A stretch of 64,000 nt of DNA, taken from contig JAPPCZ010000087.1 in assembly GCA_028824685.1 (NCBI GenBank), positions 25,915 to 89,914 on the forward strand. Reading direction: 5' to 3'. The notes beneath the pieces were generated by a model. It did no database searches. It was not told the DNA's origin and was given only the letters and a program-made list of their open reading frames with translations. This document shows positions 7,715 to 59,508 of this stretch, piece after piece (positions within the stretch are counted from its first letter, which is position 1; every line of letters starts with the position of its first letter). The stretch is from Candidatus Poribacteria bacterium. GTDB lineage: Bacteria > Poribacteria > WGA-4E > WGA-3G. Both the position numbers and the translations under genes were made by a program.

Positions 7715-7805
7715 AGGGAACTCCGATTCCCGACGGCTAATAGGTTGAGTCGTGATTCGGAGATCACTCCCGCTGAATGCCAAACGCGCATTCAGCGTTG
7801 ATTCA
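7715..7805. repeat. cluster of short palindromic repeat modules (GGGAACTCCGATTCCCGAC / GATTCGGAGATCACTCC / GCCAAACGCGCATTCAGCGTTGATTCACAG)
   Basis: The same modules recur at 17600-17640, 47320-47420, 50560-50700 and 53770-53900. Confidence 0.8.
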
Positions 7806-7847
7806 CAGAAGAAGTGTAAACTTATTTTTCCAATTCACTATAAGCAA

Positions 7848-7878
7848 AAAGCCGTTGCTGATTAAGCAACGGCTTTAG
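7848..7878 (-). terminator. hairpin terminator (AAAGCCGTTGC-loop-GCAACGGCTTT)
   Basis: 11-bp perfect stem. On the minus strand it is followed by TTTTGC. Lies downstream of the minus-strand transposase remnant. Confidence 0.45.
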
Positions 7879-7916
7879 TTGTTATACTAGGGTGTGTAAA
7901 GTTTTGGTTATAAGTA

Positions 7917-8353
7917 TCATGCTGCTTGTTTGAGTTCATTCCAATATCTGTCCCACGCCCCATTTTTCACTAAACACCGTAAGGCAAGCACCTTATTGAT
8001 ACCTTCTTTTTTCCATCTCATAACAGCTTGTTTACATCTTTGTCCTACAACATGTTGACACGCACTCTCAATCACACCACTCCCGATATGATACCCTTTT
8101 TCACGAAACACTTTGTATTGCATACGCTCGGCATGTTTTCAAAATACCTCACTTCTCTTTCTAAAATATCCAAAACTTCCGACTGCTGTGCTGCGAAGCC
8201 ACGAATGCATGCTACCACAGCTGTGATGTCCCCATCAAAAAGTAGCGGTTCTGTCGCTTTTAGCCAAGACCCGATAACTTCAATCTCTGTCTCGCCAAAG
8301 GCAACTTCGGTGTCCCACCAGATGCCAGTTGTGGATAATCTTTGTAAACACAA
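7917..8353 (-). pseudogene. truncated, frameshifted DDE transposase remnant (C-terminal tail resembles the ISKra4/ISNCY-group pattern GSGxIES...MRW...LR)
   Basis: 68-aa ORF ...HIGSGVIESACQHVVGQRCKQAVMRWKKEGINKVLALRCLVKNGAWDRYW plus an overlapping 93-aa ORF in another frame. No N-terminal catalytic part is present. Abuts the MITE at 8364. Confidence 0.45.
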
Positions 8354-8363
8354 CCCAACTCAA

Positions 8364-8653
8364 CAGGGTTATTCAGTTTTCAATATTTTTCATGTTTGTT
8401 TGCTATGCCGTTAATTTAATATGTTGCCATCTTGTCCGTGTCTTTAGTCCCGCTGAATGCCATAAGACGAATGCCATACGCGCATTCGTCTTATGGCATT
8501 CAGCGGGACTAAAAAACTGGAAGGGGTACTCGTTTTCTATAAACATAGCGTCCCTACGGGACTAAAGAACAATGTTCATGTTTCTGGGTATTAACTTTCA
8601 GTAAGTCTCAATACCAGAAAACTCTTAAAACTGAATAACCCTGCTAGCTCAAA
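8364..8653. mobile_element. MITE-like non-autonomous element, copy 1 (17-bp TIR CAGGGTTATTCAGTTTT)
   Basis: Perfect 17-bp terminal inverted repeats at 8364-8380 and 8637-8653. Degenerate 9-bp flanks CCAACTCAA / CTAGCTCAA (7/9 match). Contains a 28-bp-arm perfect palindrome (8449-8518) and TAGTCCCGTAGGGACG-family modules. Second copy at 42764-43093. Confidence 0.75.
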
Positions 8654-8671
8654 AACCTCCCTTGACAATTC

Positions 8672-8700
8672 AATCCATACAAGATATAATTAAAGAAACC
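8672..8700 (+). promoter_or_regulatory. consensus sigma70 promoter for trpA
   Basis: TTGACA (8672-8677), 17-nt spacer, TATAAT (8695-8700). Confidence 0.6.
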
Positions 8701-8732
8701 AATTTATAGAAAGCCGAAAAGCAATTATATCT

Positions 8733-9542
8733 ATGAATCGAATTGAAAAGAAATTTCAGGAACTCAAACAGCAAGGTGCCAGCGCATTTATGCCGTATGT
8801 CTGTGCTGGAGATCCAAACCCAGAACTAACCCCTAAACTTTTTCTTACCCTTGAAGAAGCTGGTGCTGACATCATAGAATTTGGTGTTCCCTTCTCCGAC
8901 CCGATAGCAGACGGGCCGACTATTCAACGTGCCAGCGAACGGGCACTCAAACACCGCATCTCTCTCCAACAAATTCTTGAGATTGTAAAAACTCTCCGAC
9001 AACAGACGGAAATCCCCATCGCTTTGATGAGTTACTATAACCCTATCTTTCGGATGGGCGAGGAGTCATTTTGCAAAGCTGCGCAAGCTGCTGGTATTGA
9101 TGGTGTAATCATTCCGGATTTACCGCCTGAGCAGGCGGATTCGCTTCTGAAAGTTGCATCACAATACAATCTTGCGACTATTTTTCTCGTCGCACCGACA
9201 AGTCCACCAGAACGAATGCAATTGATTGCATCGGTCAGCACAGGATTTATCTATTGCGTCTCGGTAACAGGAGTAACTGGAGCAAGGGCAACTTTGTCAG
9301 ATGAGGTTGCACCTATGATAGCAGAACTACGCAAGCACACAGACAAACCGATTTGTGTCGGTTTCGGTATATCAACGCCTGAGCAGGCAACGCAAGTTGC
9401 CCATGTTGCTGATGGTGCTATTGTGGCAAGTGCTATTATCAATGTCGCTGAAAAGAATATGGATGACGAAACAAAATTGCTTACTGAGGTGAAACAGTTT
9501 GCATCAGATTTGGCGGCTGGAACAAAAATAGTTGATATTTAA
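8733..9542 (+). CDS. trpA: tryptophan synthase alpha chain
   Basis: EFGVPFSDPIADGPTIQ motif. 269 aa. No trpB adjacent. Confidence 0.85.
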   Translation: MNRIEKKFQELKQQGASAFMPYVCAGDPNPELTPKLFLTLEEAGADIIEFGVPFSDPIADGPTIQRASERALKHRISLQQILEIVKTLRQQTEIPIALMSYYNPIFRMGEESFCKAAQAAGIDGVIIPDLPPEQADSLLKVASQYNLATIFLVAPTSPPERMQLIASVSTGFIYCVSVTGVTGARATLSDEVAPMIAELRKHTDKPICVGFGISTPEQATQVAHVADGAIVASAIINVAEKNMDDETKLLTEVKQFASDLAAGTKIVDI

Positions 9543-9604
9543 ACTCAGATCGTTTTAGGTGTGACTTGTTAACTTTTTCAAGTAAAAGTTCGGCTTAATT
9601 ACGA

Positions 9605-10330
9605 TTAGACCCACTCTCTCAACACTTGTTCAGGATCAGTCTCTGGATTGAAAACCAATAAACCTTCATCGCGCGCTGCTCTCAGCAGACGTTGATCGGA
9701 TGCAACAAGTACTAACTTATCCTCCGAAGCGTTATGAAGTTCTATTGCGACATCTAACGCTGAGCGTAACACCATTGCATCAACGCTGTTGATTGAATGC
9801 TTATCCATCAAATTTAGTGATGCCCAAATTAGGGAATTGGGTATTGAAATTGTTTTGAAATCTGAGGCTGCATCGATTATTTCAAGGTTTAGATTGGCCA
9901 CCGCATGATTAAAGTCATATTGTGTAATTCGCTTGTCATTCCTTTTGCGAACAAAAATTGATAAGACCTCTGCTGCACCGATAGCCAAACACCTGAAATA
10001 TCCGCGAGAAGTATTAGCAAAAGGAAGTTAACTTTGTTACTACCAATTTCAAGGAGGTACCGCTTGACAAGCGCGCTGGCATCGTAGTAGAAATAATACG
10101 CACTTATTTTCCCGTTCTTCAATGATCGCTCGGCTAAATTCGTTTTCCTCGGCACGAATGCCATTACGCTCCATACTTTTGTGGAGTTCTTCAATCGATA
10201 TAGGGTCAAGACCAATAATTCCGTGCCGTTCAAAAAATGGGCGCAGAATTCTTGCTGCCTCTCGCTTATCTGCATAAACCGGTTTGCCAACTTCTACGTT
10301 CTTGTCATCTGCTTTCTGCCATTGTTCACA
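9605..10330 (-). pseudogene. degraded VapBC-like toxin-antitoxin module (frameshifted PIN toxin plus start-less antitoxin remnant)
   Basis: PIN N-terminal motif YYFYYDASALVKRYLLEIGS sits in one frame (about 10030-10100). The PIN C-terminal part VLVASDQRLLRAARDEGLLVFNPE sits in another (ORF 9605-9988). Upstream is an antitoxin-like frame (...ADKREAARILRPFFERHGIIGLDPISIEELHKSMERNG...) with no in-frame start codon. Confidence 0.5.
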
Positions 10331-10456
10331 ATTCTCCTTTTACTTCTGAATGGGACATCCAACAGTATAATTGCGTTGTCTACATTTGTCAAGATGAGAT
10401 TGCAAAAAACTAATTAAGAACTCTGTTAGGAATTCGATTTTTATAATGCGCTTGGT

Positions 10457-11353
10457 TTACATGCCACGTTTGATTCCAAATTCTGCCTCAAACGCTTCCC
10501 AAATTTCTTCCGATATGTCAGCGGTAGCCGCTTTATATCCATCTTCCACCTGCGCTTTGTCTGCTGGGCCGAACATCACAACCCCGTCTATAGGTGCAGC
10601 AAGACAAAACTGCATCGCTAAGTGACGAATATTTACATCCCGTTCTTGACACCATTTCCACATAGAATATGCCTTGGGTTCAGCATCCGGGTTCCGCCTA
10701 CGCTCATCTTCAACATTCGGTTCTACCCCCGTTAAACTTCCCATTCCTAAAGGGCTCGCAAGGATAATGCCAACATCGTGTTCGCGTGCTAACGGCAGAG
10801 TCGTCTGCGCGACGGATTGCGATAATAACGTGTAATCCAAGAAGGTGAGAATAATATCAATATGTCCTGTTTCAATCAGTTGCTTGTGGAATTCGTGGGA
10901 ACGTACTCCTGCCCCGATGTGTCGGATTAAGCCTTCATCTTTCATCTCCAAAAGCGTATCCAACGCACGTCCTTTATCTAATACACTTTCCATATCCAAC
11001 GGGTCATGGATCAACACTGCATCAAGATAGTCTGTTTGCATGTCTTTAAGACTATTTGTCACACTCCACCGTGTGCCGTCCGCGGAGAAATCTTTCCTAC
11101 GTTCAGGATGTGTGCCAACTTTAGCTTGTAGATAGACTTTTTCTCTTAAACCGTCAGAAAGTGCTTCTCCCCAAAGATGCTCCCTGTGTCCAGGGTAGGT
11201 GTCAATATAGTTGATACCGATTCCAATTGCTTTTCTGATTGCACTAATAACCTCTTCATCTGGTTTTGAGGACAACCATGCTGCACCAAGTGCTAATGCA
11301 TTTGGTCGCATCTCAGTTCGCCCCATTCGGCGAGTCTCCAATTTTTGTACCAT
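10457..11353 (-). CDS. aldo/keto reductase family oxidoreductase
   Basis: AKR-like C-terminal motif ILASPLGMGSLTG. ATG at 11353 preceded by AAGGAG. The track ORF to 11482 would overlap the upstream gene. Confidence 0.6.
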   Translation of the reverse strand: MVQKLETRRMGRTEMRPNALALGAAWLSSKPDEEVISAIRKAIGIGINYIDTYPGHREHLWGEALSDGLREKVYLQAKVGTHPERRKDFSADGTRWSVTNSLKDMQTDYLDAVLIHDPLDMESVLDKGRALDTLLEMKDEGLIRHIGAGVRSHEFHKQLIETGHIDIILTFLDYTLLSQSVAQTTLPLAREHDVGIILASPLGMGSLTGVEPNVEDERRRNPDAEPKAYSMWKWCQERDVNIRHLAMQFCLAAPIDGVVMFGPADKAQVEDGYKAATADISEEIWEAFEAEFGIKRGM

Positions 11354-11378
11354 AATAAAACTCCTTAAAGAGCTGCTT

Positions 11379-11978
11379 CTACTGTTCCTCAAGTGCTTTT
11401 CGTAATTTATGTGTAGATGTAGCAAGTGATTCCTGCAAATAAGGGTATGGGAAACCACCCCACCGATCAGGCGGAGGTTCATGTGCCTGCGCTATCTTTA
11501 GATTTACAAAAACAGTACCGGGTTCATTCCAAATCTTCGGAAGATCGGTTTCAAGTATATCTATGTCATCAAATTCATATACTTGCTCAAAACCCGTTCC
11601 TTTCGCAATTGTCACCCAACTAAAGTCAGCATTTCGTGGAACCGGTTGATTACCAGTTACCTCATACGTACCGTTATCACAAACAAAAAGGAGATAGTTC
11701 GCAGGCGGTTTTGCTAAACCTGTAATCGTTGCGAGTGTCCCCAAACACATCAACATGCTCCCATCGCCGTTAAGCACAATAACTCTTTTGTCAGGCTTTG
11801 CAAGCGCAATACCGAGTGCGAAGTCCGCAGCGTGTCCCATAGCACTCCCAACAGAGGCGTAATCCAGTGGATGTGTTGATATTTTTGCCCACGGCACGCT
11901 CATTCCCATCGTAGCAACGACGATTTCGTCTGTTCGTTGAGATGCAATGAGTTGTAAACACTCTTCCTTGACAAGCAT
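11379..11978 (-). CDS. thiamine-pyrophosphate enzyme, C-terminal TPP-binding domain only (sulfopyruvate/phosphonopyruvate decarboxylase beta-subunit-like)
   Basis: GDGSMLM...CDNG TPP-binding motif. 199 aa. No alpha/N-terminal PYR-domain partner seen nearby. Confidence 0.6.
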   Translation of the reverse strand: MLVKEECLQLIASQRTDEIVVATMGMSVPWAKISTHPLDYASVGSAMGHAADFALGIALAKPDKRVIVLNGDGSMLMCLGTLATITGLAKPPANYLLFVCDNGTYEVTGNQPVPRNADFSWVTIAKGTGFEQVYEFDDIDILETDLPKIWNEPGTVFVNLKIAQAHEPPPDRWGGFPYPYLQESLATSTHKLRKALEEQ

Positions 11979-12006
11979 GAATCCTCCATTTTAAAGTAAA
12001 GTAATT

Positions 12007-13407
12007 CTACTTTTTGCCTTCCTCTAAGGGTAAAAATTTGATTTTGGGTCTATTTTTGATCGTTGTTATCATAATTTGGAGGTGTTGCAAAAATTCCGAT
12101 TGGGTTTCTATTCCATTAATTCCACCTTCCCAAATAGCAAATGTCCGATAACTGATTCGTCCTTCGCTATCAGGATTTAGGGAAATAGACAAACGGGATG
12201 CATCTGTGTCAACCAAACTACTTGTCTGTGTTCGGGAATATATTAATGCTATACCGAGAGGATATGTTCCATCAGGGTCTGTTCCCCAACTCCATAACAA
12301 ACCTTGGTCTTCGTCAACACCAAATGTTTCTCCAAGTTTTGGAATACCCGCGACGATAGCATAATCCGCAGGCAACTCTCTATCTAATTGGATTTGGTGT
12401 TCAATCCAGAGATTACTGCCATAAATAAAAGTTGTTGACTTAAGATGGTATGTTTCACCGTCAATGTACCAACTGGGGAGAATCCGTTGAACTACAGAAC
12501 GCATACCTCCATCGGCAAGAATCCGAACGTAATCCTCATCACTTGGCAGTGGAATCAATTCGTTTTCTCCCCTATGCCATAGTGCGAACCCACCACATCC
12601 GATCAATTCATCTAAAGGTGTTAACATAACCATTGTGGTGTTTTCTGGGTCAAGAAGTGCATTTAGGGACAACCCAATTGATTTGAAAAGATTGAGTTGT
12701 TCCTCAGTTTTTCGGACAAAGTAATCCTCTTGATTCTCTAAGTCATGGATTACCCAACGCTGTTCAGGTTTTTTAACTTCTCTTTTTATCGCCTGTGGAT
12801 TTTGGGACAATGATATATTTTTGTTTTCAAAATGGAACCTAAATTCAGGTGACAACGGAACATCGTTTTCTAATTCACTTTGAAACATTATATTAACACC
12901 GAAAAGTTCTTCTCGCTTTTTGCCATAAGCAACTACAGCACCGCTTGGCTTCAGCAAATATGCGATTAAATCGGATTCTACTGCCGCGACAGCATCCAGC
13001 TCAGGAAAGATACCAGCACGTGTCTGCTTTTTTACATCAAGTGTAAATGTTGCCTTAACATTAGGGTCGTAGAGAATTGAGATCTCTTTTGTTTGCTCCC
13101 GCTCAAGATCCAAGAGAAAAACCAATTGGTCACGCTCTCCATCATAGTTTAAGTCATCCGCTTGCGCGGGAATCATTGCCTCTTGCGGTTGTTTACCAGT
13201 AACCACAGAATAAGCATTCAGGGAGAAATCTGGACTGACTTTTCGCAACTGGTCTAAAGTCATCACAATTGGAACGTTTTCTCTATCAATTGCGAGTGTA
13301 TTTTGAATAGTAAACCGGATGCGGTTTGTCTTCTGTTTTCCCCCTGGGAACGTACAACCAGCAAAAAATACCAAAAATGCTAAAATAAGCCAATGCCAAC
13401 ATTTCAT
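12007..13407 (-). CDS. hypothetical lipoprotein
   Basis: Signal peptide with lipobox FFAGC (MKCWHWLILAFLVFFAGC). About 465 aa, no recognisable domain. Confidence 0.5.
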   Translation of the reverse strand: MKCWHWLILAFLVFFAGCTFPGGKQKTNRIRFTIQNTLAIDRENVPIVMTLDQLRKVSPDFSLNAYSVVTGKQPQEAMIPAQADDLNYDGERDQLVFLLDLEREQTKEISILYDPNVKATFTLDVKKQTRAGIFPELDAVAAVESDLIAYLLKPSGAVVAYGKKREELFGVNIMFQSELENDVPLSPEFRFHFENKNISLSQNPQAIKREVKKPEQRWVIHDLENQEDYFVRKTEEQLNLFKSIGLSLNALLDPENTTMVMLTPLDELIGCGGFALWHRGENELIPLPSDEDYVRILADGGMRSVVQRILPSWYIDGETYHLKSTTFIYGSNLWIEHQIQLDRELPADYAIVAGIPKLGETFGVDEDQGLLWSWGTDPDGTYPLGIALIYSRTQTSSLVDTDASRLSISLNPDSEGRISYRTFAIWEGGINGIETQSEFLQHLQIMITTIKNRPKIKFLPLEEGKK

Positions 13408-13486
13408 TGTTAGAATTTGAGTCTTTTCATCTGTGTATATCATCAATTTTCATTTCCGATTGAAAGTCATACCTTAGAAATTGCCC

Positions 13487-17599: not shown

Positions 17600-17640
17600 A
17601 TTGTTATAGGTCGCGATTCGGAGATCGCTCCTACTGATGG
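17600..17640. repeat. palindromic repeat module GTCGCGATTCGGAGATCGCTCC
   Basis: Same family as the modules at 7760, 47395 and 50566. Confidence 0.7.
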
Positions 17641-19374: not shown

Positions 19375-19630
19375 GCCACGGTAGGTGCGGTTTCTAACCG
19401 CACCATAGGTGTCAATTTAAGAACATGTATCTGTTTTTCTCGTTTGAAATAACGGATTGTCTGAACCAAGATTTTAGTGTTGACTGCTCTTTGTAGCGCA
19501 AACTTTTAGTTTGCGTCCCTTTGATGCACAAACTAAAAGTTTGTGCTACGCTAAGACAGGACAAATCCTCTAATTTACACACAAAATTGACGCCTATGGT
19601 GCGGTTTCTAACCGCACCGATCCAAAAAAT
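19375..19630. repeat. composite palindromic repeat block (two GGTGCGGTTTCTAACCGCACC hairpins flanking GCGCAAACTTTTAGTTTGCG / GCACAAACTAAAAGTTTGTGC hairpins)
   Basis: Hairpins at about 19384-19406 and 19608-19628. Inner palindromes at 19497-19516 and 19526-19546. A similar GCAAACTAATAGTTTGCG module recurs at 36650-36685. Confidence 0.75.
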
Positions 19631-20550: not shown

Positions 20551-20619
20551 AGTAAATTATAGTGAAATCTAAATTATCTTTACAGTTCTTTATAGGTTAT
20601 ATGCGTTTGTAGTCGCGTA

Positions 20620-20670
20620 ATTCATTGCGCCTCTTCATGTAGGAGCGACCTCCTGGTCGCGACTTTAAAA
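20620..20670. repeat. palindromic module TGTAGGAGCGACCTCCTGGTCGCGAC
   Basis: Near-identical copy at 39565-39595. A hybrid copy (CTGTAGGAGCGATCTCCGAATCTCGAC) at 50560. Confidence 0.7.
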
Positions 20671-28318: not shown

Positions 28319-28497
28319 AATATGTGTTTGACAAAGTTTGCAGATCAGGTAGAGCGCAGCGAAACCCTAATCAACGCTATGAATGCCTTTGGTAGAAAGC
28401 GCTTTTTGGCATTCTACATGATTCAGCGAGTGTCAATTTAGGAAAATATCTGTGTTATTGTGAACACCTCTAAATACTTGTGATTATTGTGATTGTC

Positions 28498-28720
28498 CCA
28501 TATTTAGTCCCGTAGGGACGAGATGTTTATAGCGCACCATAAAACACCCTTCTTTAGCTCCGTAGGAGCGACATATTCTGATGGATAAACGGATGTAACA
28601 ACATACCGCCCGACAAATGCCATACGCGCATTTGGCGTTGATTCACGGGCTCAAGAACATGTTCACCTTGTTTTCTATAAACATTGCGTCCCTGCGGGAC
28701 TGAAGGGGTTCCATATTTGG
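28498..28720. mobile_element. MITE-like palindromic element (imperfect ~35-bp TIR CCATATTTAGTCCCGTAGGGACGAGATGTTTATAG)
   Basis: The ends are inverted copies of the TAGTCCCGTAGGGACG...TGTTTATAG module. Interior carries GCCATACGCGCATTTGGCGTTGATTCAC. Flanked at a distance by the 22-bp direct repeats GTAGAGCGCAGCGAAACCCTAATC (28349) and CTAGAGCGTAGCGAAACCTAATAC (28746). Confidence 0.6.
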
Positions 28721-28910
28721 AAAACCCTTAAATTGGCACTTATGGCTAGAGCGTAGCGAAACCTAATACTCTTGTAGGAGGCGTTTGCAACGCCGATAAA
28801 TCGGACTTTCAAAGTCCTACCACAAGAAGATCTTATGAGAATTGTACAGCTCTGAAATGTCTGTAAATTCATATTGCCCATTAGGCATAAATATGGTATC
28901 CTTAAAAGAC

Positions 28911-29254
28911 GCTTGAGTTGAGTAGATGGTCGCGTCCCATAATGGGATGAGGAAAGTCCGGACTCCGTAGGGCAGGGTGCTGGGTAACCCCCAGGAGCGG
29001 TAACGCTATGGAAAGTGCAACAGAAAATAGACTACAACGTATTAAAACGTTGTACAGGTGAAACGGTGCGGTAAAAGCGCACCAGTCCATAAGGTGACTT
29101 ATGGTGCTGGCAAACCCCATCTGGAGCAAGGTAAAATGTGGACATTTAGAGGTGTGCCCGCCTCGTCCCGGGTAACCGCTTGAGGTTAATGGCAACATTG
29201 ATCCCAGATGAATGATCATCATATACAGAATCCGGCTTATTCTCAACTCAAGCC
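28911..29254 (+). ncRNA. rnpB: RNase P RNA, bacterial type A
   Basis: Universally conserved GGAAAGTCCGG...AGGGCAGGGTGCTGGGTAAC, GTGCAACAGAAA, GGTGCGGTAAAAGCGCACC, AGATGAATGA and ACAGAATCCGGCTTA. P1 helix pairs GCTTGAGTTGAG (28911) with CTCAACTCAAGC (29243-29254). Confidence 0.92.
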
Positions 29255-34968: not shown

Positions 34969-35006
34969 ATTCTTAAATTTACTATGTGACATTGAAGATT
35001 TGGGTA

Positions 35007-35084
35007 TTTAGTCCCGTAGGGACGATATGTTTATAGAAACGAAATAAACGTCCTCTTTAGTCCCGTAGGGACGATATGTTTATA
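35007..35084. repeat. two tandem copies of the 29-bp module TTTAGTCCCGTAGGGACGATATGTTTATA
   Basis: Copies at 35007-35035 and 35056-35084. The same module occurs at 8540, 28503 and 42843. Confidence 0.85.
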
Positions 35085-35263
35085 TGACAATACCTAATAT
35101 CCGTGAAAACAACAAAAACAATTAGTTAACTGGCACAAGTCGTTATAGTTGCAAATTATCACAAATTGAATTATAATATTATATCAACTCCGTACAAATT
35201 CACAGATTATAATTGTGATCTGTTTCACAACTGAAACAGGACAAAGGAGTAAAAGATACACTT

Positions 35264-36613: not shown

Positions 36614-36639
36614 ATCCAACACTTGTTGTAGCACAATCT

Positions 36640-36765
36640 GTTAGATTGTGCTTGAAAACCCGCAAACTAATAGTTTGCGTTACGAAATCCTAATTTATAG
36701 ATTAGCCGCACAAGATAAGGTGATCGCAGCAAACACGGCGCGTTTACAAAGCGCGCCTACTATGA
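36640..36765. repeat. palindromic modules GCAAACTAATAGTTTGCG and GGCGCGTTTACAAAGCGCGCC
   Basis: The second module recurs at 43170, 50722 and 58300 with variant loops. Confidence 0.7.
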
Positions 36766-36770
36766 GATTT

Positions 36771-39420: not shown

Positions 39421-39439
39421 AGGTGTATCCATATTGCAC

Positions 39440-39600
39440 AGAGGCATTCAATTGTCGCGAACTTCTCTTATTGGAGGGCTTTGTAAGCCCGACTTAACTT
39501 ACAAACGCGTTTAATGTGGATGTCATACGCGCATTCACCACGCGCAATTTATTACACCTCTTTTCTTCTTGTAGGAGCGACCTCCTGGTCACGACCCCGT
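39440..39600. repeat. intergenic repeat block (CATTCAATTGTCGCGAAC...TTGGAGGGCTTTGTAAGCCCGAC, GTCATACGCGCATTCACC, TGTAGGAGCGACCTCCTGGTCACGAC)
   Basis: First module repeated at 43110-43160. Last module at 20625. Confidence 0.7.
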
Positions 39601-39654
39601 CTAAATGTTAAGAAAAACAAAACTGAATGACTCTGCTATATTACAAATTTTACA

Positions 39655-42693: not shown

Positions 42694-42763
42694 TCGTAAC
42701 CTCCTTTCTTTTTATTATTCTATCACACTCCTTAAAACCTATCAAGTTGAAAAGACTCTCTAT

Positions 42764-43093
42764 CAGGGTTATTCAGTTTTCAATATTTTTGATGGTTTTT
42801 TGCTATGACGTTAATTTGATGTGTTGCCATCTTGTCCGTGTCTTTAGTCCCATAGGGACGCTATGTTTATAGAAAAATGTTATCTACCTCTCTTGAGTTC
42901 CGGGGAATGCCTAAATGGCATTCATACCGTTGATTTGGTAGGAACGGCATAGAAGATTTAACATATTGTCCTCGCCAAATACAAAACGCGTATTTGGCGA
43001 GGATTCATGGGACTAAAGAACAATTTCATGTTTGTGGATATGAACTTTCAGTAAACCTCAATACCAGAAAACTCTTAAAACTGAATAACCCTG
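42764..43093. mobile_element. MITE-like element, copy 2 (17-bp TIR CAGGGTTATTCAGTTTT) with 9-bp target-site duplication ACTCTCTAT
   Basis: TIRs at 42764-42780 and 43077-43093. Identical direct flanks ACTCTCTAT at 42755-42763 and 43094-43102. The left ~90 bp and right ~50 bp are shared with copy 1 at 8364-8653. No coding capacity. Confidence 0.85.
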
Positions 43094-43104
43094 ACTCTCT
43101 ATCC

Positions 43105-43205
43105 AAAGCCATTCAATTGTCACGAAGTCATCTTGTTGGAGGGCTTTGTAAGCCCGATTTATTACCCAACGGTAGGCGCGTTTTGTAAACGCGCCTACCG
43201 TTGGC
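43105..43205. repeat. repeat modules CATTCAATTGTCACGAAG...TTGGAGGGCTTTGTAAGCCCGAT and CGGTAGGCGCGTTTTGTAAACGCGCCTACCG
   Basis: Copies of the modules at 39445 and 36735/50722/58300. Confidence 0.7.
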
Positions 43206-47242: not shown

Positions 47243-47319
47243 TGGAATCATCCTCATTGAATTACAGCAGCAACTTAAATAGTGGAGTGTTGAGTCTAAA
47301 ATTAAAGGTATTAGCAATA

Positions 47320-47420
47320 GTCGGGAATCGAAGTTCCCGACTACAATACACAAGGTTTCTGCGAATCAACGCTGAATGCGCGTATGGCATTCAGCGGGAG
47401 CGATCTCCGAATCGCGACCT
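47320..47420. repeat. repeat block (AGTCGGGAATCGAAGTTCCCGACT, GCTGAATGCGCGTATGGCATTCAGC, GAGCGATCTCCGAATCGCGACC)
   Basis: The same three module types appear at 7725-7800 and 50560-50690. It overlaps the 5' end of the track ORF 47384, which is therefore probably over-extended. Confidence 0.8.
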
Positions 47421-50483: not shown

Positions 50484-50559
50484 TTTCAGATGCATCTGTT
50501 ATAGTAAAATCTAATTGAAACAATTATAGTAAAATTATGTAAATAAGTTTACATATATT

Positions 50560-50750
50560 CTGTAGGAGCGATCTCCGAATCTCGACAAAACGGACTGATA
50601 GTCGGGAATCGGAGTTCCCTCCCGCCAAATCATGCAGAATACCAAACGCGTATTCTGCCAAGCGCATTTGGCGTTGATTCACAGATCAGATGTCCAGTTA
50701 ATTGTAGAATTCACTATAATAGCGCGCTTACAAAGCGCGCCTACAAGGTT
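50560..50750. repeat. intergenic repeat block (CTGTAGGAGCGATCTCCGAATCTCGAC, AGTCGGGAATCGGAGTTCCC, CCAAACGCGTATTCTGCCAAGCGCATTTGGCGTTGATTCACAG, TAGCGCGCTTACAAAGCGCGCCTA)
   Basis: Combines modules seen at 7725-7805, 47320-47420, 36735 and 58300. Confidence 0.8.
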
Positions 50751-52806: not shown

Positions 52807-53031
52807 ACATATAAAACAATAGGCAAATTTCCATCGCGAAAGTCTAAAAAGTTGAGTTTTTATGATTGCAATTGGTCTCTACCTCCTTCTGTGTTTTTGG
52901 AAATCATACCACAAATTTGGTTTATTTTCACTATGTTTTTAAGTCTTAATGTGTTACAATAGTAGTGAAAAAAATACGGTTTTTAGTTCATTTTTTTGAC
53001 ATTTTCAATGCGAAATGCAAGGAAATTCCAA

Positions 53032-53726
53032 TGGAAGCAAAAATACTAATTGTAGAGGATGAACGCGATATCGTAGAGTTGCTAAGATATAATCTGCGGG
53101 AAGCAGATTTTAAAGTTGATACTGTTCGGAATGGAGCCGATGCACTACAGCGTGCAGTAGATAATCCCCCCGACCTTATTTTGTTAGACCTCATGCTACC
53201 TGAAGTAGACGGTTTAATCGTCTGTCGACTCCTAAAGAATGACCCCCGCACCAAAAACATTCCTATCGTGATGCTGACGGCAAAAACTGAAGAACAAGAC
53301 CGCGTAACTGGGCTTGAGTTAGGTGCTGATGATTATATCACAAAACCTTTTAGTCCACGCGAAGTTGTTTTACGTATCAATGCTGTGCTACGGAGACTCC
53401 GAGCAAGTGAACAGACTGATGAAGAAAATCAGATAGAAACGCATGGTGTGACAATTGATTTGGATCGACATCAAGTATTGACTGCAGATGGGGCAATTGA
53501 TCTCACTGCAACTGAGTTCAAACTTATTACACTGTTCGCACGTTCACCCGGACGCGTTTTCAATCGTGATATTCTGATGGATGTTATCTGGGGACAAGAG
53601 TATTACGGCATTGATAGGACAGTTGACACACATGTCAGCCGTCTCAGACGGAAGTTGGGTGATTTAGGAAAACATATTGAAACTGTATACGGTGTTGGCT
53701 ATAGACTTAAGGAAGAGAAGTCTTGA
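53032..53726 (+). CDS. OmpR/PhoB-family two-component response regulator (orphan, no adjacent kinase)
   Basis: Receiver domain MEAKILIVEDERD...DLILLDLMLP. Winged-helix C-terminus ...YGVGYRL. Start moved to the ATG at 53032. Confidence 0.8.
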
Positions 53727-53769
53727 TGATTAGTAATACCATTTCTATATGATAATATTACACTATTTC

Positions 53770-54060
53770 GTAGGTCGGGTAGAAGCGGTAGCAAAACCCG
53801 ACTTTTTATAGTGTCATGTCCAAATCAACGCTAAATGCGCCAAATCAACGGTATGAATGCCATTTGGCATTCCCGTGTGGCATTTGGCGGGTTTCGTTCC
53901 TCAACCCGACCTACAATATATTATGAAAATTTGTCAATTAGAACGGTATAAATTCCTAAATCAATAGATAAACGCTGATAGGTGAATGTGTAGATTTGTC
54001 AAACTCCGCCTTGGAAATATAAGAGGCGCAATGAATTGCGCGACTACAAACACCGCAAAT
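53770..54060. repeat. intergenic repeat block (GTAGGTCGGGT...ACCCGACCTAC ~140-bp palindromic element, GAATGCCATTTGGCATTC, GCGCAATGAATTGCGCGACTACAAA)
   Basis: Large imperfect inverted repeat with termini CGTAGGTCGGGTAG (53770) and CAACCCGACCTACAATAT (53895-53912). The GAATTGCGCGACTAC module repeats at 54958. Confidence 0.7.
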
Positions 54061-54081
54061 TTGAAGAAATGGAGCCATTTT

Positions 54082-54852
54082 ATGAATTTAAGATTAAGAG
54101 ATAAAGTTGTCGTTGTGACAGGCGCGAGTCGTGGAATAGGTAGAGCAATAGCAAACGGCTTTGCTGAGGAAGGGGCGCGGCTAAGCGTCTGTGGTAGAGA
54201 TCCAGATACCTTACAAGACGTAACTGAGGAACTCACTGCACACGGTATAAAGGTGTTGTCAAAACCCACCGATGTAACTGATAATGCTCAAGTTGATGCG
54301 TTTATCACAGAAACATTACATCGTTTCAGTAGAATTGATGTTGTCGTTAACAACGTTGGTGGAAGTCGTTGGACACCTTTACAGGAGATTTCTGATGAGG
54401 AATGGCACGAAATTCTTGATCTAAATCTTGTTTCAGCAACGCGTATTAACCGACTTGTCATTCCAGCGATGCAGAAACAAGGCGGCGGGGTAATCCTCAT
54501 GATTGCCTCTATTTACGGTAGAGAAGGTGGCGGACACATTACTTATAACGCAGCAAAAGCCGCAGAAATTAGTATGGCGAAGTCATTGGCAAAAGAACTT
54601 GCACCTGACAACATACGCGTCAATAGTATTGCGCCAGGGTCTATCCTCTTTCCCGGTGGTGGTTGGGATCGTCGTATCAAAGCGGATCCTGAAGGAATGA
54701 AAACATTTGTTGAAAGTGAGATGCCGCTTGGACGGTTCGGAAAACCAGAAGAAATTGCGAATGTTGCTGTTTTTCTTGCATCTGAACGGGCAAGCCTTGT
54801 TACTGGGGCATGTATCAATGTTGATGGATGTCAGTCGCGGTCGAATATTTGA
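54082..54852 (+). CDS. short-chain dehydrogenase/reductase (SDR)
   Basis: TGASRGIGRA cofactor motif and YNAAKAA (YxxxK). Start moved to the ATG at 54082 (MNLRLRDKVVVVTG). Confidence 0.8.
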   Translation: MNLRLRDKVVVVTGASRGIGRAIANGFAEEGARLSVCGRDPDTLQDVTEELTAHGIKVLSKPTDVTDNAQVDAFITETLHRFSRIDVVVNNVGGSRWTPLQEISDEEWHEILDLNLVSATRINRLVIPAMQKQGGGVILMIASIYGREGGGHITYNAAKAAEISMAKSLAKELAPDNIRVNSIAPGSILFPGGGWDRRIKADPEGMKTFVESEMPLGRFGKPEEIANVAVFLASERASLVTGACINVDGCQSRSNI

Positions 54853-54889
54853 CCTGCACAATGATACGCTTAAACGTGGGCAGGGCAGG

Positions 54890-54985
54890 AGTCCCCGCCC
54901 TACAAATGTAAGAGGCGACAAATGCCAAAAAACTCATTTGGCGTTAATTTGGCAATGAATTGCGCGACTACGAAAGATGCCAAAC
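54890..54985. repeat. repeat modules (GGGCAGGAGTCCCCGCCC palindrome, CATTTGGCGTTAATTTGGC, AATGAATTGCGCGACTACGAAAGATGCCAAACCTACAAAATG)
   Basis: Related copy at 54020-54060. Confidence 0.65.
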
Positions 54986-55058
54986 CTACAAAATGATTTG
55001 CAATGAAAACAAGCGTATGCTAAAATAAATTTAAATCATAAGCATATAGAGGAGAGAG

Positions 55059-58000
55059 ATGAATTACGCAGAACTGCCGCTCCCACAACGTCAGAGAGAC
55101 GAAATTCATCAGATTTTATCAGACGCATCCGATAGAGACAGAAGCGTAGATAATGACTCTATATTGCGAAGTATACAAGAACTCGCCACTGACGATGCGA
55201 ACACCCAAACCTGCTTCGCCCATATCGTTATCCCGTTGTTAGAAACTTGCCTAAATTCCCCTAACCCTGAAGCAGCCTTAAATAATTTTTCGCGTTTTGC
55301 ACACGTAACGTTTAATCGGAAATGGGTTTATCAACTCTTACGAGATGCGCCGTTTTTGATGCAAACTGTGATGCTTAGTTTCGGTGCGTCCTCATATCTA
55401 TCCGATATTCTGATTCGCAACCCGATCTATTTTTACGACATCATTGATGCAAATGTGATGGACATATCAAAGACGCGTGAAGGCATGTATGCTGAACTTG
55501 CTACGACACTCGGAAGATATCAGGACATTGATCAGAAACTTCGGATCATTCGGCGATATAAAAGACGCGAAAGCTTGCGCATAGCACTGCGCGACCTTCT
55601 CCAAGTGACAGTCGTTGAAACAACGACATTGGAGATGAGTAATTTGGCAGAAGCAACATTACAACATTGCTATGAAATTGGACGTGACCAAATTATGAAG
55701 CCGAAGTTTGGGACACCGCTGAATGAGGAAGGCACAGCACCCTGTCGTTTCGCTGTTATAGGGATGGGAAAATTTGGGGGATATGAACTTAACTTTAGTT
55801 CCGATATTGATCTAATCTTCGTTTATTCAGACGAGGGACAAACCGATGAAGGCATTGATAATAGCGAATATTATGCACGGTTGTGTGAGTTTTTAATTAA
55901 GGCGATGAGCGAGGTAACGGTGGAAGGCTATGTGTTTCGTGTGGACATCCGTTTGCGACCTGAGAGCAGCGCCGGTGTCATCATCCGTTCTATGGAAAGC
56001 TACGAAAGTTATTATGAAGGTTGGGGTGATTTATGGGAACGTCAGGCTTTAATTAAAGCACGACCTGTCGCTGGCGATATGGCATTTGGAGATGAATTCA
56101 TCCGCATGATTCAACCGTTTGTGTATCAACGTTACTTAGACGGTGTAACCCTCAATGAAATTAAAGCAGATATTCGCACCACAAAAGCACGTATAGAGGA
56201 ACGACTTGTAGGTGAAAAGGCAGACCTTGAAAAGCATGTCAAACTTGGCCCGGGTGCTATTCGGGATATTGAATTTACCGTTCAATGTTTGCAGATGATT
56301 CATGGCGGAAAACGAAAGTCACTCTGCTCACAGAATACGTTGGAAACACTTGAAGCCTTAAAGGCTAACGAATTGTTGGACGCTGAAGATGCGGATGCCT
56401 TATCAAATGCATATCGGTTTCTACGAAGAGTAGAAAACAGTATCCAAATTGAGGCAGACCAACAGCGCTATTCAGTTCCAGCAAAAGAAGAGGAGGAGAT
56501 TCAGCTTGCTCGACGTTTGAAATACCATGACGCACCGCTTGAAACATTCCGGCAAGATTATCAAACCCATAAAGCACATGTGCGTAAACTCTTTGAAAAA
56601 GTAATGGACGTCCGTGAACCGGACCAATTAGATCTCCCTGTGCTGCTTAGCCAAGATGACTCCGAAGAGATACAGGAACAATTGGGTAAGTTCGGTTTTG
56701 AGAACGTTCGCGAGGCACATCGCTTACTGAAGCACCTTGCCAACGGTAGCGATGGACAGCAATTCTCTCCCGCTGTCAGACGGACTTTCTTCAAACTTGC
56801 GCCGACTCTTTTGAAATTTTTGAGTGCAGCCCCTGACCCAGATATGGCACTGCGCTATTTTGATGCGTTTGCCGCTAAAGTCGGTGCACACAGCAGCTAC
56901 TACACGATGTTTATGGAAAGACAAGGAGCACTTGAAGCACTCATAAGTGTCTGCGGTTCAAGTCTTTACTTGGCGGATTTGTTGATTGCAAGCCCTGAAT
57001 TGTTTGATCTGTTGACAGTGCCGACTTTCACCGAATCCCCTAAGACACTCGCCCAAAAACAGGAAGAGGTTTTACAACTTGTCTCGGACACATCTAATGC
57101 TCACGTGCTTAGGGCGCTTAGACGTTACAAGAACGATGAGATTTGGCGAATTGCCCTACGGAACATTCTCGGTAATGCTGACCTACCAACGACGACTGAA
57201 GAACTCTCTGATTTAGCCGAAGCAATCCTGCAAGCCATCTATCCGCAGATTGACACGCAGTTACGCGAAGAACACGGTAACCCAACGAGCGATGACGGAA
57301 CACCTGTGACGTTTGCTATCATTGCAATGGGGAAATTTGGAGGACGTGAACTTAACTTTAGCTCAGATTTAGACGTGATGTGTGTCTACACAGCAGATGG
57401 TGAGACAACCCACGGGATGCCAAATTCGGAGTATTTTTCACTGCTCGGTTTAGAATTGGTAAAGCAGCTTAGTGGGGATCATGACATGAGTATTTATGAA
57501 CTTGATCTGCGGCTCCGTCCCTATGGTACAGGTGGCGCGATCGCATTGCCATTGTCAGGATACCAGCATTACTACGATAACACTGCAGAAATCTGGGAAC
57601 GGCAGGCACTCACACGTGCACGGGTCGTGGCAGGAGATATAGAAGGGATAGGCAACCAATTTATGGAGATTGCACACACCTTTTGCTATAAGGAACCGCT
57701 CACACCTGAAGAAATCGCTGAAATCGTACATACCCGCCAACGCAAAGAAGCGCAAGTCACCCGAAAAACGAAATCACGACGGAGACGGAGCGGAAGGACC
57801 CAAAAACCTGCTGCTAATGTAAAATCAGGGTATGGTGGACTTATTGATATTGAATTCGCTGCGCAAACACTTCAGCTTATCCATGGGACCGAAACGACTT
57901 CTGTTCGTGTCCCCAATACCCTCCTTGCAATTGAAAGACTGCATGCTATCGATGTTCTGACAGAAACGCAGCGCACAGGATTATCGGAGGCGTATCAATA

Positions 58001-58220
58001 CCTTAGGCGCGTGGAAAACGCATTGCGGATTGTTCATGACCGTGCCTTAGATGCGTTGCCTACAAATCGTGCAGAATTGACACAGTTAGCGCGCCGCCTC
58101 GGATACGCTGAAACCGAAGATACGCCTATTGTGGAGGCATTTTCACAAGATTACGGGAAGTGGACAGAAAAGACTCGTGCACTTTTCAATGAACTTGTTG
58201 TTAATGAATCAAGAATGTAG
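55059..58220 (+). CDS. glnE: bifunctional glutamine synthetase adenylyltransferase / adenylyl-removing enzyme
   Basis: 1053 aa with two nucleotidyltransferase cores: GMGKFGGYELNFSSDIDLIF and AMGKFGGRELNFSSDLDVMC. Confidence 0.85.
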   Translation: MNYAELPLPQRQRDEIHQILSDASDRDRSVDNDSILRSIQELATDDANTQTCFAHIVIPLLETCLNSPNPEAALNNFSRFAHVTFNRKWVYQLLRDAPFLMQTVMLSFGASSYLSDILIRNPIYFYDIIDANVMDISKTREGMYAELATTLGRYQDIDQKLRIIRRYKRRESLRIALRDLLQVTVVETTTLEMSNLAEATLQHCYEIGRDQIMKPKFGTPLNEEGTAPCRFAVIGMGKFGGYELNFSSDIDLIFVYSDEGQTDEGIDNSEYYARLCEFLIKAMSEVTVEGYVFRVDIRLRPESSAGVIIRSMESYESYYEGWGDLWERQALIKARPVAGDMAFGDEFIRMIQPFVYQRYLDGVTLNEIKADIRTTKARIEERLVGEKADLEKHVKLGPGAIRDIEFTVQCLQMIHGGKRKSLCSQNTLETLEALKANELLDAEDADALSNAYRFLRRVENSIQIEADQQRYSVPAKEEEEIQLARRLKYHDAPLETFRQDYQTHKAHVRKLFEKVMDVREPDQLDLPVLLSQDDSEEIQEQLGKFGFENVREAHRLLKHLANGSDGQQFSPAVRRTFFKLAPTLLKFLSAAPDPDMALRYFDAFAAKVGAHSSYYTMFMERQGALEALISVCGSSLYLADLLIASPELFDLLTVPTFTESPKTLAQKQEEVLQLVSDTSNAHVLRALRRYKNDEIWRIALRNILGNADLPTTTEELSDLAEAILQAIYPQIDTQLREEHGNPTSDDGTPVTFAIIAMGKFGGRELNFSSDLDVMCVYTADGETTHGMPNSEYFSLLGLELVKQLSGDHDMSIYELDLRLRPYGTGGAIALPLSGYQHYYDNTAEIWERQALTRARVVAGDIEGIGNQFMEIAHTFCYKEPLTPEEIAEIVHTRQRKEAQVTRKTKSRRRRSGRTQKPAANVKSGYGGLIDIEFAAQTLQLIHGTETTSVRVPNTLLAIERLHAIDVLTETQRTGLSEAYQYLRRVENALRIVHDRALDALPTNRAELTQLARRLGYAETEDTPIVEAFSQDYGKWTEKTRALFNELVVNESRM

Positions 58221-58254
58221 GTCGGATAGGGCTTGCGAAACCTGATGGGAACGT

Positions 58255-58345
58255 ATACTTACTCATGATAGGCGCGTTTTGCAAATGTTTATATATCTGT
58301 CCTAAAGTCTAACGGTGCGTTTACAAAACGCACCTACACTGGAAG
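58255..58345. repeat. repeat modules GATAGGCGCGTTTTGCAAATG and GGTGCGTTTACAAAACGCACC
   Basis: Same GCGCG/GTGCG-TTTACAAA-palindrome family as 36735, 43170 and 50722. Overlaps the 5' end of the track ORF 58315, which is therefore over-extended. Confidence 0.7.
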
Positions 58346-58396
58346 GCTACGTCTTTCTATTCGTTACAAAAATACAAAACCGTAAGGAAACATACA

Positions 58397-59454
58397 TGAC
58401 ATCTGAATCGTCACCTATTAGTTTCCGTTTCCCGAAAAATGTAATAATATGCATCGGGGACGGGATGGGTTTTGAAGCGGTCAAAGCAGCGGGCTACTAT
58501 GCCTCAGGTGAAACAGACACACTTTCCTTTGAAAGGTTCCCTCACCAAGCAAAAATAAAAACTTATGCAGCAAACACACCGATGACCGACTCTGCCGCTG
58601 CTGCAACTGCTATGGCAACCGGACACAAAGTCAACAACGGTGTCATTAGTATGGGAATTCCCGGCACAGGAACTCCGTTGAAAACACTCCTTGAAATTTC
58701 TCAGGAATTAGGTAAAAGAACAGGACTTGTCTCAACCACTTACATTACCCACGCTACTCCCGCCGCATTTGGTGCACACAATCCCCAACGTAACAACTTA
58801 GGTGAAATCGCACATGATTACCTCCACCTTACCCGTCCCAACGTGTTGTTGGGTGGCGGAGGCAATGGAATTACAGAAGAGAGAGCCGAATCCGCTGGTT
58901 ATACAGTCGTAACTGATCGAGAGGAATTGTTTACCCTCAACACCAATACGGAAATCTTTGTTTCTGGACAGTTCGGTCAGACTAATATCCCGTATATGTT
59001 TGATGGCACCAACAATCTACCGCATTTGTCAGAAATGGCAACGGTAGCGTTGGAGATTCTCTTTAACAATGAAAATGGGTTTTTCATGCTTCTGGAAGGT
59101 GGCCGGATTGACCATGCTGGACATTCTAACGATATTGAACGCCAGCTTTTAGAGACAATAGAGTTTTCTAAAGCGGTGCAGACCGTTTATGAACGGGTAT
59201 CCAATGATGGGGATACCATTATTCTTGTCACCGCTGACCACGAAACGGGTGGATTGCGGGTGCATAAAAACAACGGACAGGGAAAAGTGCCTGAAATCTC
59301 TTGGTCGACTGGTGGACATACTGTAAGCAATGTGCCACTTTACGGTTGGGGCCAGAACGCTGACCGCGTTGAAGGTGTCATGAACAATACGGATCTGATT
59401 AAAGTGGTATCAGGAACGGGAGACTTGGATGGGGTACAACTTACGCTATTGTAA
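58397..59454 (+). CDS. alkaline phosphatase family protein (no evident signal peptide)
   Basis: Metal/nucleophile region GDGMG...TDSAAAATAMATGHK (Ser nucleophile in DS(A)). ...DHAGHSN... AAGGAAA RBS before the ATG at 58397. Confidence 0.75.
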
Positions 59455-59469
59455 AAATTTAATTTTTTT

Positions 59470-59508
59470 AACCTGTAGGCGCGGTTTAAAACCGAGCCTA
59501 CCATCAAT
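59470..59508. repeat. near-palindromic module CCTGTAGGCGCGGTTTAAAACCGAGCCTACC between convergent genes
   Basis: Same family as GGTGCGGTTTCTAACCGCACC (19384). May act as a bidirectional terminator for the phosphatase gene and leuA. Confidence 0.55.

Follow-up and report, generated by a model that had tools for sequence, protein, structure and literature searches.

Several families of non-autonomous mobile elements have very probably invaded the intergenic DNA of a Candidatus Poribacteria genome; they are of the kinds known as REPs (repetitive extragenic palindromes), REPINs (hairpins made of two REPs) and MITEs (miniature inverted-repeat transposable elements). We describe them from a stretch of 64,000 nt of contig JAPPCZ010000087.1 (assembly GCA_028824685.1), here called the window, whose genes are ordinary chromosomal ones (purL, nrdJ, argS, leuA, glnE, ctp, trpA and that for RNase P RNA; GC content ~43%), and from loci of other bacteria. 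The repeats comprise small hairpin families, lettered A to G below, and larger elements bounded by terminal inverted repeats (TIRs). It seems most likely that the GTAG-tagged REP hairpins B, D, E and G, which often occur as inverted doublets (REPIN-like) or in arrays, are copied via single-stranded DNA by class-2 REP-associated tyrosine transposases (RAYTs, of the HUH/Y1 type) encoded elsewhere in the genome. Family A probably corresponds to the hairpins that flank another Y1 transposase, TnpA_Y1 subclass 1.2. Family C appears to insert directly 3' of CC(C), typically where the 5' arm of an existing hairpin meets its loop, to give nested palindromes; the MITEs, of 100-600 bp, carry the small hairpins as cargo and are probably moved by DDE transposases of the ISKra4 family. 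The less expected parts of this picture are the link of subclass 1.2 to a hairpin that crosses phyla, and the loop-targeted mini-element C.

To our knowledge, Poribacteria have not been cultivated, and these sponge symbionts are known from metagenomes alone. The share of REPs and MITEs in their intergenic DNA, about a quarter, matters for gene calling (through false or extended open reading frames, ORFs), for assembly and binning, and for the reading of promoters and terminators; it would also extend REP-RAYT systems to another phylum.

Extent, dispersal and structure of the repeats

Every intergenic region of at least 60 nt was read through. The original prediction had placed about six palindromic modules, shuffled in different combinations, in at least 17 intergenic regions. 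Modules are indeed present at all 17 of the positions given, but these make up 15 regions (7715 and 8364 share one, and 42764 and 43105 another); the families were recovered, but the sixth module (TGTAGGAGCGACCTCCTGGTCGCGAC) proved on alignment to be the reverse complement of the second, with the loop CAGGAG in place of TCGGAG; and the combinations are there, but several of the supposedly separate modules are parts of larger TIR-bounded elements (those starting at 7671, 8364, 28430, 39439, 42764 and 50524 in Table 1). Chance is excluded both by the numbers of matches to three of the modules in the window (6, 6 and 2, against ~0.03, ~0.05 and 0 expected from dinucleotide shuffles) and by an unsupervised repeat search of the window, which recovered the same families. 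By a stringent BLAST criterion, requiring at least two other copies, dispersed repeats occupy ~2.2 kb of the window, or 23% of its 9.2 kb of non-genic DNA. They are essentially extragenic in the window: only 74 repeat bases lie inside called ORFs, at two spots that are both dubious N-terminal extensions (ORFs 47384 and 53986). As had been anticipated, the modules inflate naive ORF calls (ORFs 47384, 58315, 8028 and 50632 are examples), and the description of REP-type repeats with sequence families of their own was also apt, since they can be placed among the REP/REPIN-RAYT and MITE kinds and represent new sequence families. CRISPR-like arrays, considered as another identity for some of this DNA, were ruled out, the would-be 'spacers' being constant.

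One genome per species was scanned for the 16-mer TAGTCCCGTAGGGACG, which provided at least 117 loci, 55 of them in metagenome-assembled genomes (MAGs) of Candidatus Poribacteria, including closed chromosomes. BLAST matches to the DNA of the window came only from Poribacteria among the loci listed, the best gene showing 77% identity. The TrpA of the window has a recorded match on a metagenome scaffold of 171.5 kb (ROBB21-1_SAMN13943212). Strict patterns applied to 440 kb from the 55 Poribacteria loci gave 11, 11 and 8 matches for B, 9 for C, 29 and 17 for D, 4 for E, 7 for F and 18 for the MITE1 TIR, against none for any of them in 412 kb of non-Poribacteria loci or in shuffled sequence (the Poribacteria loci were chosen for holding module A, which biases such co-occurrence counts). 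Rigid regular expressions proved too strict for C and D; covariance models, built instead on the copies in the window, located 49 sites for B, 32 for C and ~48 for D in 520 kb made up of the window and Poribacteria DNA. Repeat densities in the other loci are within two- to three-fold of that in the window, and every family recurs across many Candidatus Poribacteria MAGs and in sponge metagenome DNA. The expectation that the families would not be confined to the window is thus borne out by strict patterns, covariance models and metagenome scan alike: the repeats recur in most of the sampled Poribacteria loci, from which any copy number per genome is an extrapolation. A local duplication or assembly artefact limited to the scaffold might have been suspected, as the window derives from a metagenome scaffold, although nothing specific otherwise favours it; this explanation is already refuted, and has virtually no probability left, because the same families turn up in a separate sponge metagenome and in dozens of assemblies obtained independently, among them closed long-read chromosomes from several species of Poribacteria.

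Two observations concern other lineages. An A-type hairpin (AGTCCCGTAGGGAC plus a CATATTGGTAG-like tail) is amplified as local clusters in some Bacteroidota MAGs (L022, L067, L016, L070 and L035), so that this hairpin family extends beyond Poribacteria. The fully palindromic GTAGGTGCGGT...ACCGCACCTAC occurs in many non-sponge metagenome contigs (Ga0163153, Ga0163155, Ga0163144, Ga0105046 and others; loci L121, L124, L126-L128, L131, L147, L153, L158 and others), which makes it probable that a D2-like REP is present in other lineages. A literature search on the hairpin sequence, or on REPs in Poribacteria, returned nothing.

That the modules form hairpins, as was also predicted at the outset, is supported by folding and by the covariation of their stems. 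All are predicted to fold as single-stranded DNA, strongly in the case of C, D and E (z -4.7 to -8.4), and a 71-nt perfect palindrome at 8442-8512 reaches -39.5 kcal/mol (z -15). In the covariance-model alignments 96% of cells in the B stem and 94.6% in the C stem are paired, fractions that lean towards pairing because the alignments were fitted to the proposed structures; cells with double changes number 46 for B and 38 for C, compared with 12 in each case after shuffling, and controls in which pairing partners were slid gave far lower pairing. One pair of the B stem is seen as CG, GC and UA, and another as UA, CG, AU and GC, whereas in an alternative B hairpin, GGAG/CTCC, both arms are invariant. 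The stems of A occur as GTCCC, GCCCC, GCTCC, GTTCC, GTGCC and ACCCC, each paired with its exact complement. In D, the inner eight pairs are conserved or covarying, and pairing is absent from the outer GTA/TAC columns in 44-56 of 78 rows; individual copies have GTAG or CTAC on one side, and D therefore has the one-sided GTAG tag that is typical of REPs. The reverse strand of B reads CTGTAG-GAGCGAT..., and E doublets have the form GTAG...CTAC.

Hairpins beside tyrosine transposase genes

Which enzymes might copy these hairpins? GTAG-tagged REPs and REPINs, with their RAYTs (TnpA_REP), are known in Escherichia coli, Pseudomonas and Stenotrophomonas (Nunvar 2010; Bertels & Rainey 2011, PMC3116915; Di Nocera et al. 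2013, PMC3733652). Scanning of metagenome contigs for the D2 hairpin with its GTAG tag led to a contig from the metagenome of the sponge Aplysina aerophoba (L199) encoding a 157-aa protein that scores 116.8 bits against NF047646 (REP-associated tyrosine transposase; cut-off 80) and has the motifs PDHIH and Y..NP. Its gene is flanked by inverted copies of GGTAGGTTCGGTTTCCTAACCGAACC (D-type) and adjoins D2/MITE3 ends seen otherwise only in Poribacteria; homologues of the protein are numerous and mostly of 153-158 aa, and several are labelled Candidatus Poribacteria. In a 6.11-Mb Poribacteria chromosome (L240), a RAYT gene lies between a 43-nt array of TGTAGGAGCGAGCTGTGCTCGCGAT and an inverted copy, amounting to a B-like REP, and in another, of 6.35 Mb (L241), D-like arrays flank the RAYT gene. 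The idea that a RAYT gene would be flanked by the modules is thus supported in relatives, where inverted B-like or D-like GTAG hairpins occupy these positions, but not in the window, which has no RAYT gene; the sole trace of a transposase there is an ISKra4-family remnant (7889-8353). When the E. coli RAYT was used as a tblastn query it found no match among the 117 loci listed, although the TnpA of IS608 did (both query sequences were checked against the PDB). We also draw attention to a TnpB gene (OrfB_IS605 / Cas12f-like) directly upstream of the RAYT gene in L241 (211-1329), an IS605-like pairing in which the RAYT replaces an IS200-type TnpA, and to a GGTTGTT microsatellite of ~6 units upstream of the REP array beside the RAYT gene in L240 (1010-1060).

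The Poribacterial repeats share several features with known REP-RAYT systems. D, B and E, like other GTAG REPs, are extragenic palindromes of 20-40 nt with an unpaired GTAG at one end; they form inverted doublets (inverted pairs of B ~40 nt apart in at least nine places, and E doublets of 59 nt) and clusters, there are several families per genome, spacers downstream of genes are preferred, and there are RAYT genes with inverted flanking copies (L199, L240 and L241). They differ in that the sequence families and the phylum are new, in being heavily nested with other families, and in the want of a RAYT gene in the window itself. The E. coli BIMEs (bacterial interspersed mosaic elements) are defined by Y and Z types of REP, by defined linker motifs, and by the binding of IHF, gyrase and Pol I. 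The repeats described here are, like BIMEs, intergenic mosaics of palindromic units in alternating orientation, but these mosaics come largely from nesting and MITE cargo, there is no sequence relation, and the defining features of BIMEs are not evident. Poribacteria are nowhere mentioned in the text of the surveys PMC3733652 and PMC6006769.

Family A, with the consensus TTTA-GTCCC-GTA-GGGAC-GATATGTTTATAG (a hairpin plus ATGTTTATAG), is often found in arrays with a period of ~50 nt. Its characteristics do not allow it to be classed with the CGTC-tagged REPs, which have an unpaired CGTC tag, a stem of 8-9 bp starting with A-T pairs, a loop of 4-5 nt and a CCA tail (PMC3733652); in A the GTC of CGTC is in the 5-bp stem, the loop is of 3 nt and the tail is that given above. 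Genes for Y1 proteins of ~150 aa were found by tblastn directly beside an A hairpin in nine of 62 non-Poribacteria loci and one of 55 Poribacteria loci among those listed, all of them loci that had been picked by the 16-mer alone, and two more Poribacterial copies fetched by protein homology (L118 and L119) are flanked by A-type hairpins. In three cases (L102, L010 and L119) A-type hairpins are present in plus orientation at about -95 and -45 upstream of the Y1 gene and in minus orientation downstream of it; the layout in L118 is the same but less clean, the downstream inverted copies being imperfect. The proteins match Pfam Y1_Tnp, with the IS200 family model of NCBIfam scoring above REP_Tyr, and D54, H55, H57, W95, Q96, Y115, Q119 and H123 are invariant in nine of them.

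Judged by motifs against Table 1 of PMC6006769, and not by the hidden Markov model of its authors, the Y1 genes beside A appear to belong to TnpA_Y1 subclass 1.2: they agree with it in length (~150 aa, against ~148 described), in the motifs DH[IV]H, WQ and Y---Q--HH, and in having a conserved C-terminal domain. Members of this subclass have been described as being generally without flanking IS200-type hairpins, of low copy number, and mostly from Cyanobacteria and Bacteroidetes (Quentin et al. 2018, PMC6006769). Those considered here are, by contrast, flanked by inverted hairpins of the GTCCC-GTA-GGGAC type (the absence of such hairpins being a described tendency of the subclass, and not a defining feature); they are spread over Poribacteria, Ignavibacteria, Planctomycetota and Bacteroidota, with many truncated copies in the first of these; and in Poribacteria the hairpin has been amplified into a dispersed family. 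The orphan subclass 1.2 would in this way gain a concrete DNA partner.

Insertions of family C, and elements bounded by terminal inverted repeats

Family C is a hairpin of 31-36 nt with the tail GTTGATTYR. When MITE1 copies from the window were aligned with those of three other species (L055, L020 and L071), the A and A' hairpins were found to be intact elsewhere, whereas in the copies of the window the corresponding hairpin is interrupted by an insertion. An identical 34-nt element occupies the loop of A' (42902) and the loop of another C (53841), and in other genomes at least three different C variants are situated exactly between the CCC and the GTAGGG of A hairpins, of which the empty version is the majority form. 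Nearly all copies of C follow CC(C). This pattern of filled and empty sites argues for the site-specific insertion of a 31-36-nt element at hairpin loops, which would account for the 71-nt perfect palindrome at 8442-8512.

The small dispersed repeats of Nostoc punctiforme are reportedly very small mobile modules (of tens of nucleotides) that insert precisely at short sites and nest in larger repeats. One of them, SDR5, is inserted in HIP1 after its third nucleotide and before its fourth, according to PMC4390886. C is comparable in being a tiny module with precise, site-specific insertion that nests in larger repeats, and is distinguished by its unrelated sequence, its length of 31-36 nt, and its target, 3' of CC(C) at hairpin loops. 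A cyanobacterial origin of the window, or repeats of the HIP1 type in it, were considered and rejected: GCGATCGC is not enriched there, and glnE is present. As a tiny element with hairpin loops for its targets, C provides a clean natural case on which the single-strand targeting model of Y1 transposases could be tested with short oligonucleotides. It is possible, though we would put this forward only as a tentative idea suggested by the arrangement of the sequences, that subclass 1.2 is a second cross-phylum class of REP-mobilising enzyme, acting on GTCCC-GTA-GGGAC hairpins, and that C is among the smallest of site-specific bacterial mobile elements (31-36 nt), inserting 3' of CCC where stem and loop join in single-stranded hairpins, possibly by means of the same enzyme, to generate nested palindromes of up to 71 nt.

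There are three classes of MITE, seen in many Poribacteria loci as recurrent pairs of TIRs with 100-600 bp between them. An intact ISKra4-family insertion sequence (IS) with a 26-bp TIR and a 9-bp target duplication was found in L007. One MITE class (L038-type) carries the TIR of this IS, and the TIR of MITE1 is similar to that type; the MITE1 copy at 42764-43093 has a perfect 9-bp duplication, of the same length as that of the IS in L007. An autonomous partner with an identical TIR was not found for MITE1 or MITE3. The ends of MITE3 (28430-28739 and 19409-19598) abut inverted GTAG-tagged D2 hairpins, and MITE3 therefore resembles a REPIN-type doublet with a long spacer holding A modules, although its D2 doublets enclose a spacer of 200-300 bp with a TIR of its own, in place of the short spacer of REPINs. 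In general these elements are like IS-derived MITEs in their TIRs, their size, the lack of an ORF, the 9-bp target duplication and, in one class, a TIR shared with an ISKra4-family IS (L007, L038), and unlike them in that their interiors are built from REP-type hairpins and that the ends of MITE3 are themselves GTAG-tagged hairpins.

It might be argued that every small hairpin is a passive passenger of TIR-bounded MITEs, which DDE transposases (ISKra4-type and others) would move, and that their associations with Y1 genes are incidental. All seven intact A copies of the window lie within larger repeated units (MITE1, MITE3 or 34992-35146); in L038 the ISKra4-type TIR encloses a seven-unit array of A, and in L007 a B hairpin is in the centre of a MITE1-like element; and the target duplication of MITE1 is like that of an IS. 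We nevertheless regard this as unlikely, because some hairpins stand alone and have no TIRs (B at 17608; D at 59470, 36729 and 58306), inverted copies of exactly these hairpin types surround the RAYT gene in each of three separate loci, A hairpins border subclass 1.2 Y1 genes in four phyla, and C inserts as a discrete unit without a TIR.

Returning to the proposal that Y1 enzymes and DDE transposases have both been at work, several points count against it, in addition to the lean in locus choice and in alignment fitting already mentioned. The predicted folding of A and B is weak (z -2.0 and -0.8), because their stems are of 5 bp; tblastn detected no Y1 transposase gene within the 64-kb window; the association of repeats with transposases is correlative; and a cognate enzyme was identified for none of C, E, F and G. 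Moreover, many of the Poribacterial subclass 1.2 genes are truncated (84-135 aa), and the system may therefore be decaying, while most window copies of A lie inside TIR-bounded MITEs, so that DDE transposases may have contributed more to their spread than the Y1 enzyme. With these reservations, the flanking arrangements suggest that the enzymes named here move the repeats, which may still be active.

Position relative to genes, and other features of the window

D hairpins are present in all four of the convergent spacers of at least 68 nt, but in only two of the 22 other spacers (p=0.001). Such a distribution agrees with the tendency of REPs, already known, to sit downstream of genes (PMC3733652), and could reflect either tolerance or use as 3'-end structures; it is the one indirect indication for the roles as terminators or mRNA stabilisers suggested at the outset. 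Inserted repeats may influence transcripts, as for example where D hairpins lie at the 3' ends of convergent genes. Could the hairpins, then, be non-mobile sites selected by the host (terminators, stabilisers of mRNA 3' ends, or protein-binding sites) that are alike through selection for function? The occupancy of convergent spacers by D is what might be expected of such sites, the stems covary, and a loose terminator pattern is matched by some copies of A and D. However, that loose pattern is all that they match, D being without a proper downstream T tract, and selection for function sits badly with the recurrence of near-identical 30-300-nt units, including their unpaired flanks, in unrelated contexts and in both orientations, with nested insertions for which there are matching empty sites, with the target duplication of MITE1, and with transposase genes flanked by inverted copies. 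We therefore consider this explanation very unlikely, while noting that mobility and a secondary function are compatible and not mutually exclusive. The repeats and related features of the window are collected in Table 1.

Table 1. Repeat elements and hairpins in the window, with positions counted from its first nucleotide
Feature	Position	Strand	Ends, tags or sequence	Contents and remarks
MITE2 copy 1	7671..7843		TIR TTATAGTGAATT / AATTCACTATAA	Inverted B doublet 7707-7736 (-), 7747-7776 (+); C 7769-7808 (+)
ISKra4-family IS remnant	7889..8353	-	Terminal repeat GGGTGTGTAAAGTTTT at 7890	Frameshifted C-terminal part of transposase; NF033572 E=4e-22; 74% identity to L007
MITE1 copy 1	8364..8643		TIR CAGGGTTATTCAGTTTT	71-nt perfect nested palindrome 8442-8512 (C within C within A arms); A(-) 8537-8567
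Solo B module	17608..17637	+	GTCGCGATTCGGAGATCGCTCCTAC	GTAG tag when read on minus strand
Short MITE3-like unit	19376..19627		TIR GTGTCAATTTAAG (19409) and inverse	Abutted by GTAG-tagged D2 hairpins 19376-19413, 19590-19627
E doublet inside 19376..19627 unit	19491-19549		GTAG-CGCAAAC..GTTTGTG-CTAC	
MITE2-like end, repeated segment and B	20557..20665		End TTATAGTGAAAT	Segment 20565-20635, up to 17 copies in Poribacteria loci; B(-) 20636-20665, loop CAGGAG
G-type units	28349-28370 and 28746-28770		GTAGAGCG.AGCGAAACC	
MITE3	28430..28739		TIR GTGTCAATTTAGG / CTTAAATTGGCAC	A(+) 28501-28532; A'(+) GCTCC-GTA-GGAGC 28551-28580; A(-) 28675-28705
C in MITE3 28430..28739	28609-28648	+		Inserted in loop of A(-) hairpin
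Doublet of two unlike hairpins	28773..28826		GTAG...CTAC	GGCGTT-TGC-AACGCC and GGACTTT-C-AAAGTCC
A tandem array, two units	34992..35146	+	Conserved tail	35005-35042, 35054-35091, period 49; between stop codon of upstream gene and promoter-like site
E doublet	36628-36686		GTAG-CACAATC..GATTGTG / CGCAAAC..GTTTGCG-TTAC	Convergent spacer (unit 36628..36766)
D hairpin	36729-36766		One-sided CCTAC tag	Convergent spacer
MITE1b	39439..39635		TIR CAGAGGCATTCAATTGTC / AAAACTGAATGACTCTG	F 39473-39492; degenerate C 39515-39545; B(-) 39568-39597
MITE1 copy 2	42764-43093 (region 42755..43102)		Perfect 9-bp target duplication ACTCTCTAT on both sides (42755/43094)	A(+) 42841-42872
C insertions in MITE1 copy 2	42902-42936; 42971-43010			34-nt C2 in A' loop; C(+) in A(-) loop
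MITE1b left part with F, followed by palindromic D	43104..43204			F 43138-43157
Fully palindromic D	43166-43204		GGTAGGCGCG-TTTTGTAAA-CGCGCCTACC	-19.3 kcal/mol, z -8.4
B-like 10-bp hairpin	47318-47347		AGTCGGGAA..TTCCCGACT	
B+C composite	47359..47420	-		C 47359-47398, B 47391-47420; extends into naive start of ORF 47384
MITE2 copy 2	50524-50719			B doublet 50559-50588 (-), 50599-50628 (+); nested C 50621-50684; convergent spacer
D hairpin after MITE2 copy 2	50713-50750			Convergent spacer
G-type GTAG hairpin arms	53732..53954		GTAGGTCGGG..., ...CCCGACCTAC	Split by nested C(-) 53818-53891
34-nt C2 element	53841-53874			In loop of C(-) 53818-53891; same element as in A' loop at 42902
Dispersed segment with hairpin	54015..54053		GCGCAATGAATTGCGC	Up to 17 copies in Poribacteria loci; upstream of probable true start of SDR gene (protein match begins at ~aa 33 of called ORF)
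B-like GTAG hairpin and C(+)	54878-54906; C 54914-54953		Reverse complement TGTAGGGCGGGGACTCCTGCCCTGCCCAC	
Partial D and complete D	58262-58285; 58306-58343		One-sided CCTAC tag (complete D)	Complete D overlaps naive GTG start of ORF 58315
D hairpin	59470..59507		TGTAGGCGCGG-TTTAAAA-CCGAGCCTACC	Lone in 68-nt convergent spacer

Some further features of the window lie outside the repeat families. A hairpin at 7845-7880 (AAAGCCGTTGC-TTAATCA-GCAACGGCTTT), followed by TTTTGC on the minus strand, looks like a canonical intrinsic terminator. Among known RNA families, Rfam at the gathering threshold gave RNase P alone in the window (a bacterial class A RNase P RNA at 28914-29254 on the plus strand, 285.9 bits, overlapped by a spurious 114-aa ORF, 28902..29246, on the minus strand); matches at relaxed thresholds were spurious ones of miRNA type, on long palindromes.

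Finally in this section, two genes are accompanied by partial duplicates. The first ~55 codons of purL are duplicated ~1.2 kb upstream (1215-1382 and 2402-2569, 89% nucleotide identity), and the intervening DNA contains a small AbrB/MazE-like ORF and a 197-aa ORF (1721-2314); the arrangement looks like the insertion of a cassette into the 5' end of purL, accompanied by a long duplication. Likewise, the 3' end of tyrS is duplicated 580 bp downstream (62673-62907 and 63255-63489, 91% identity), and a small minus-strand ORF between the two copies (...VAAWDRRRREAEARGVEFNEPPP...) resembles the 73-aa ORF that lies beside the RAYT gene in L240 (2418-2639).

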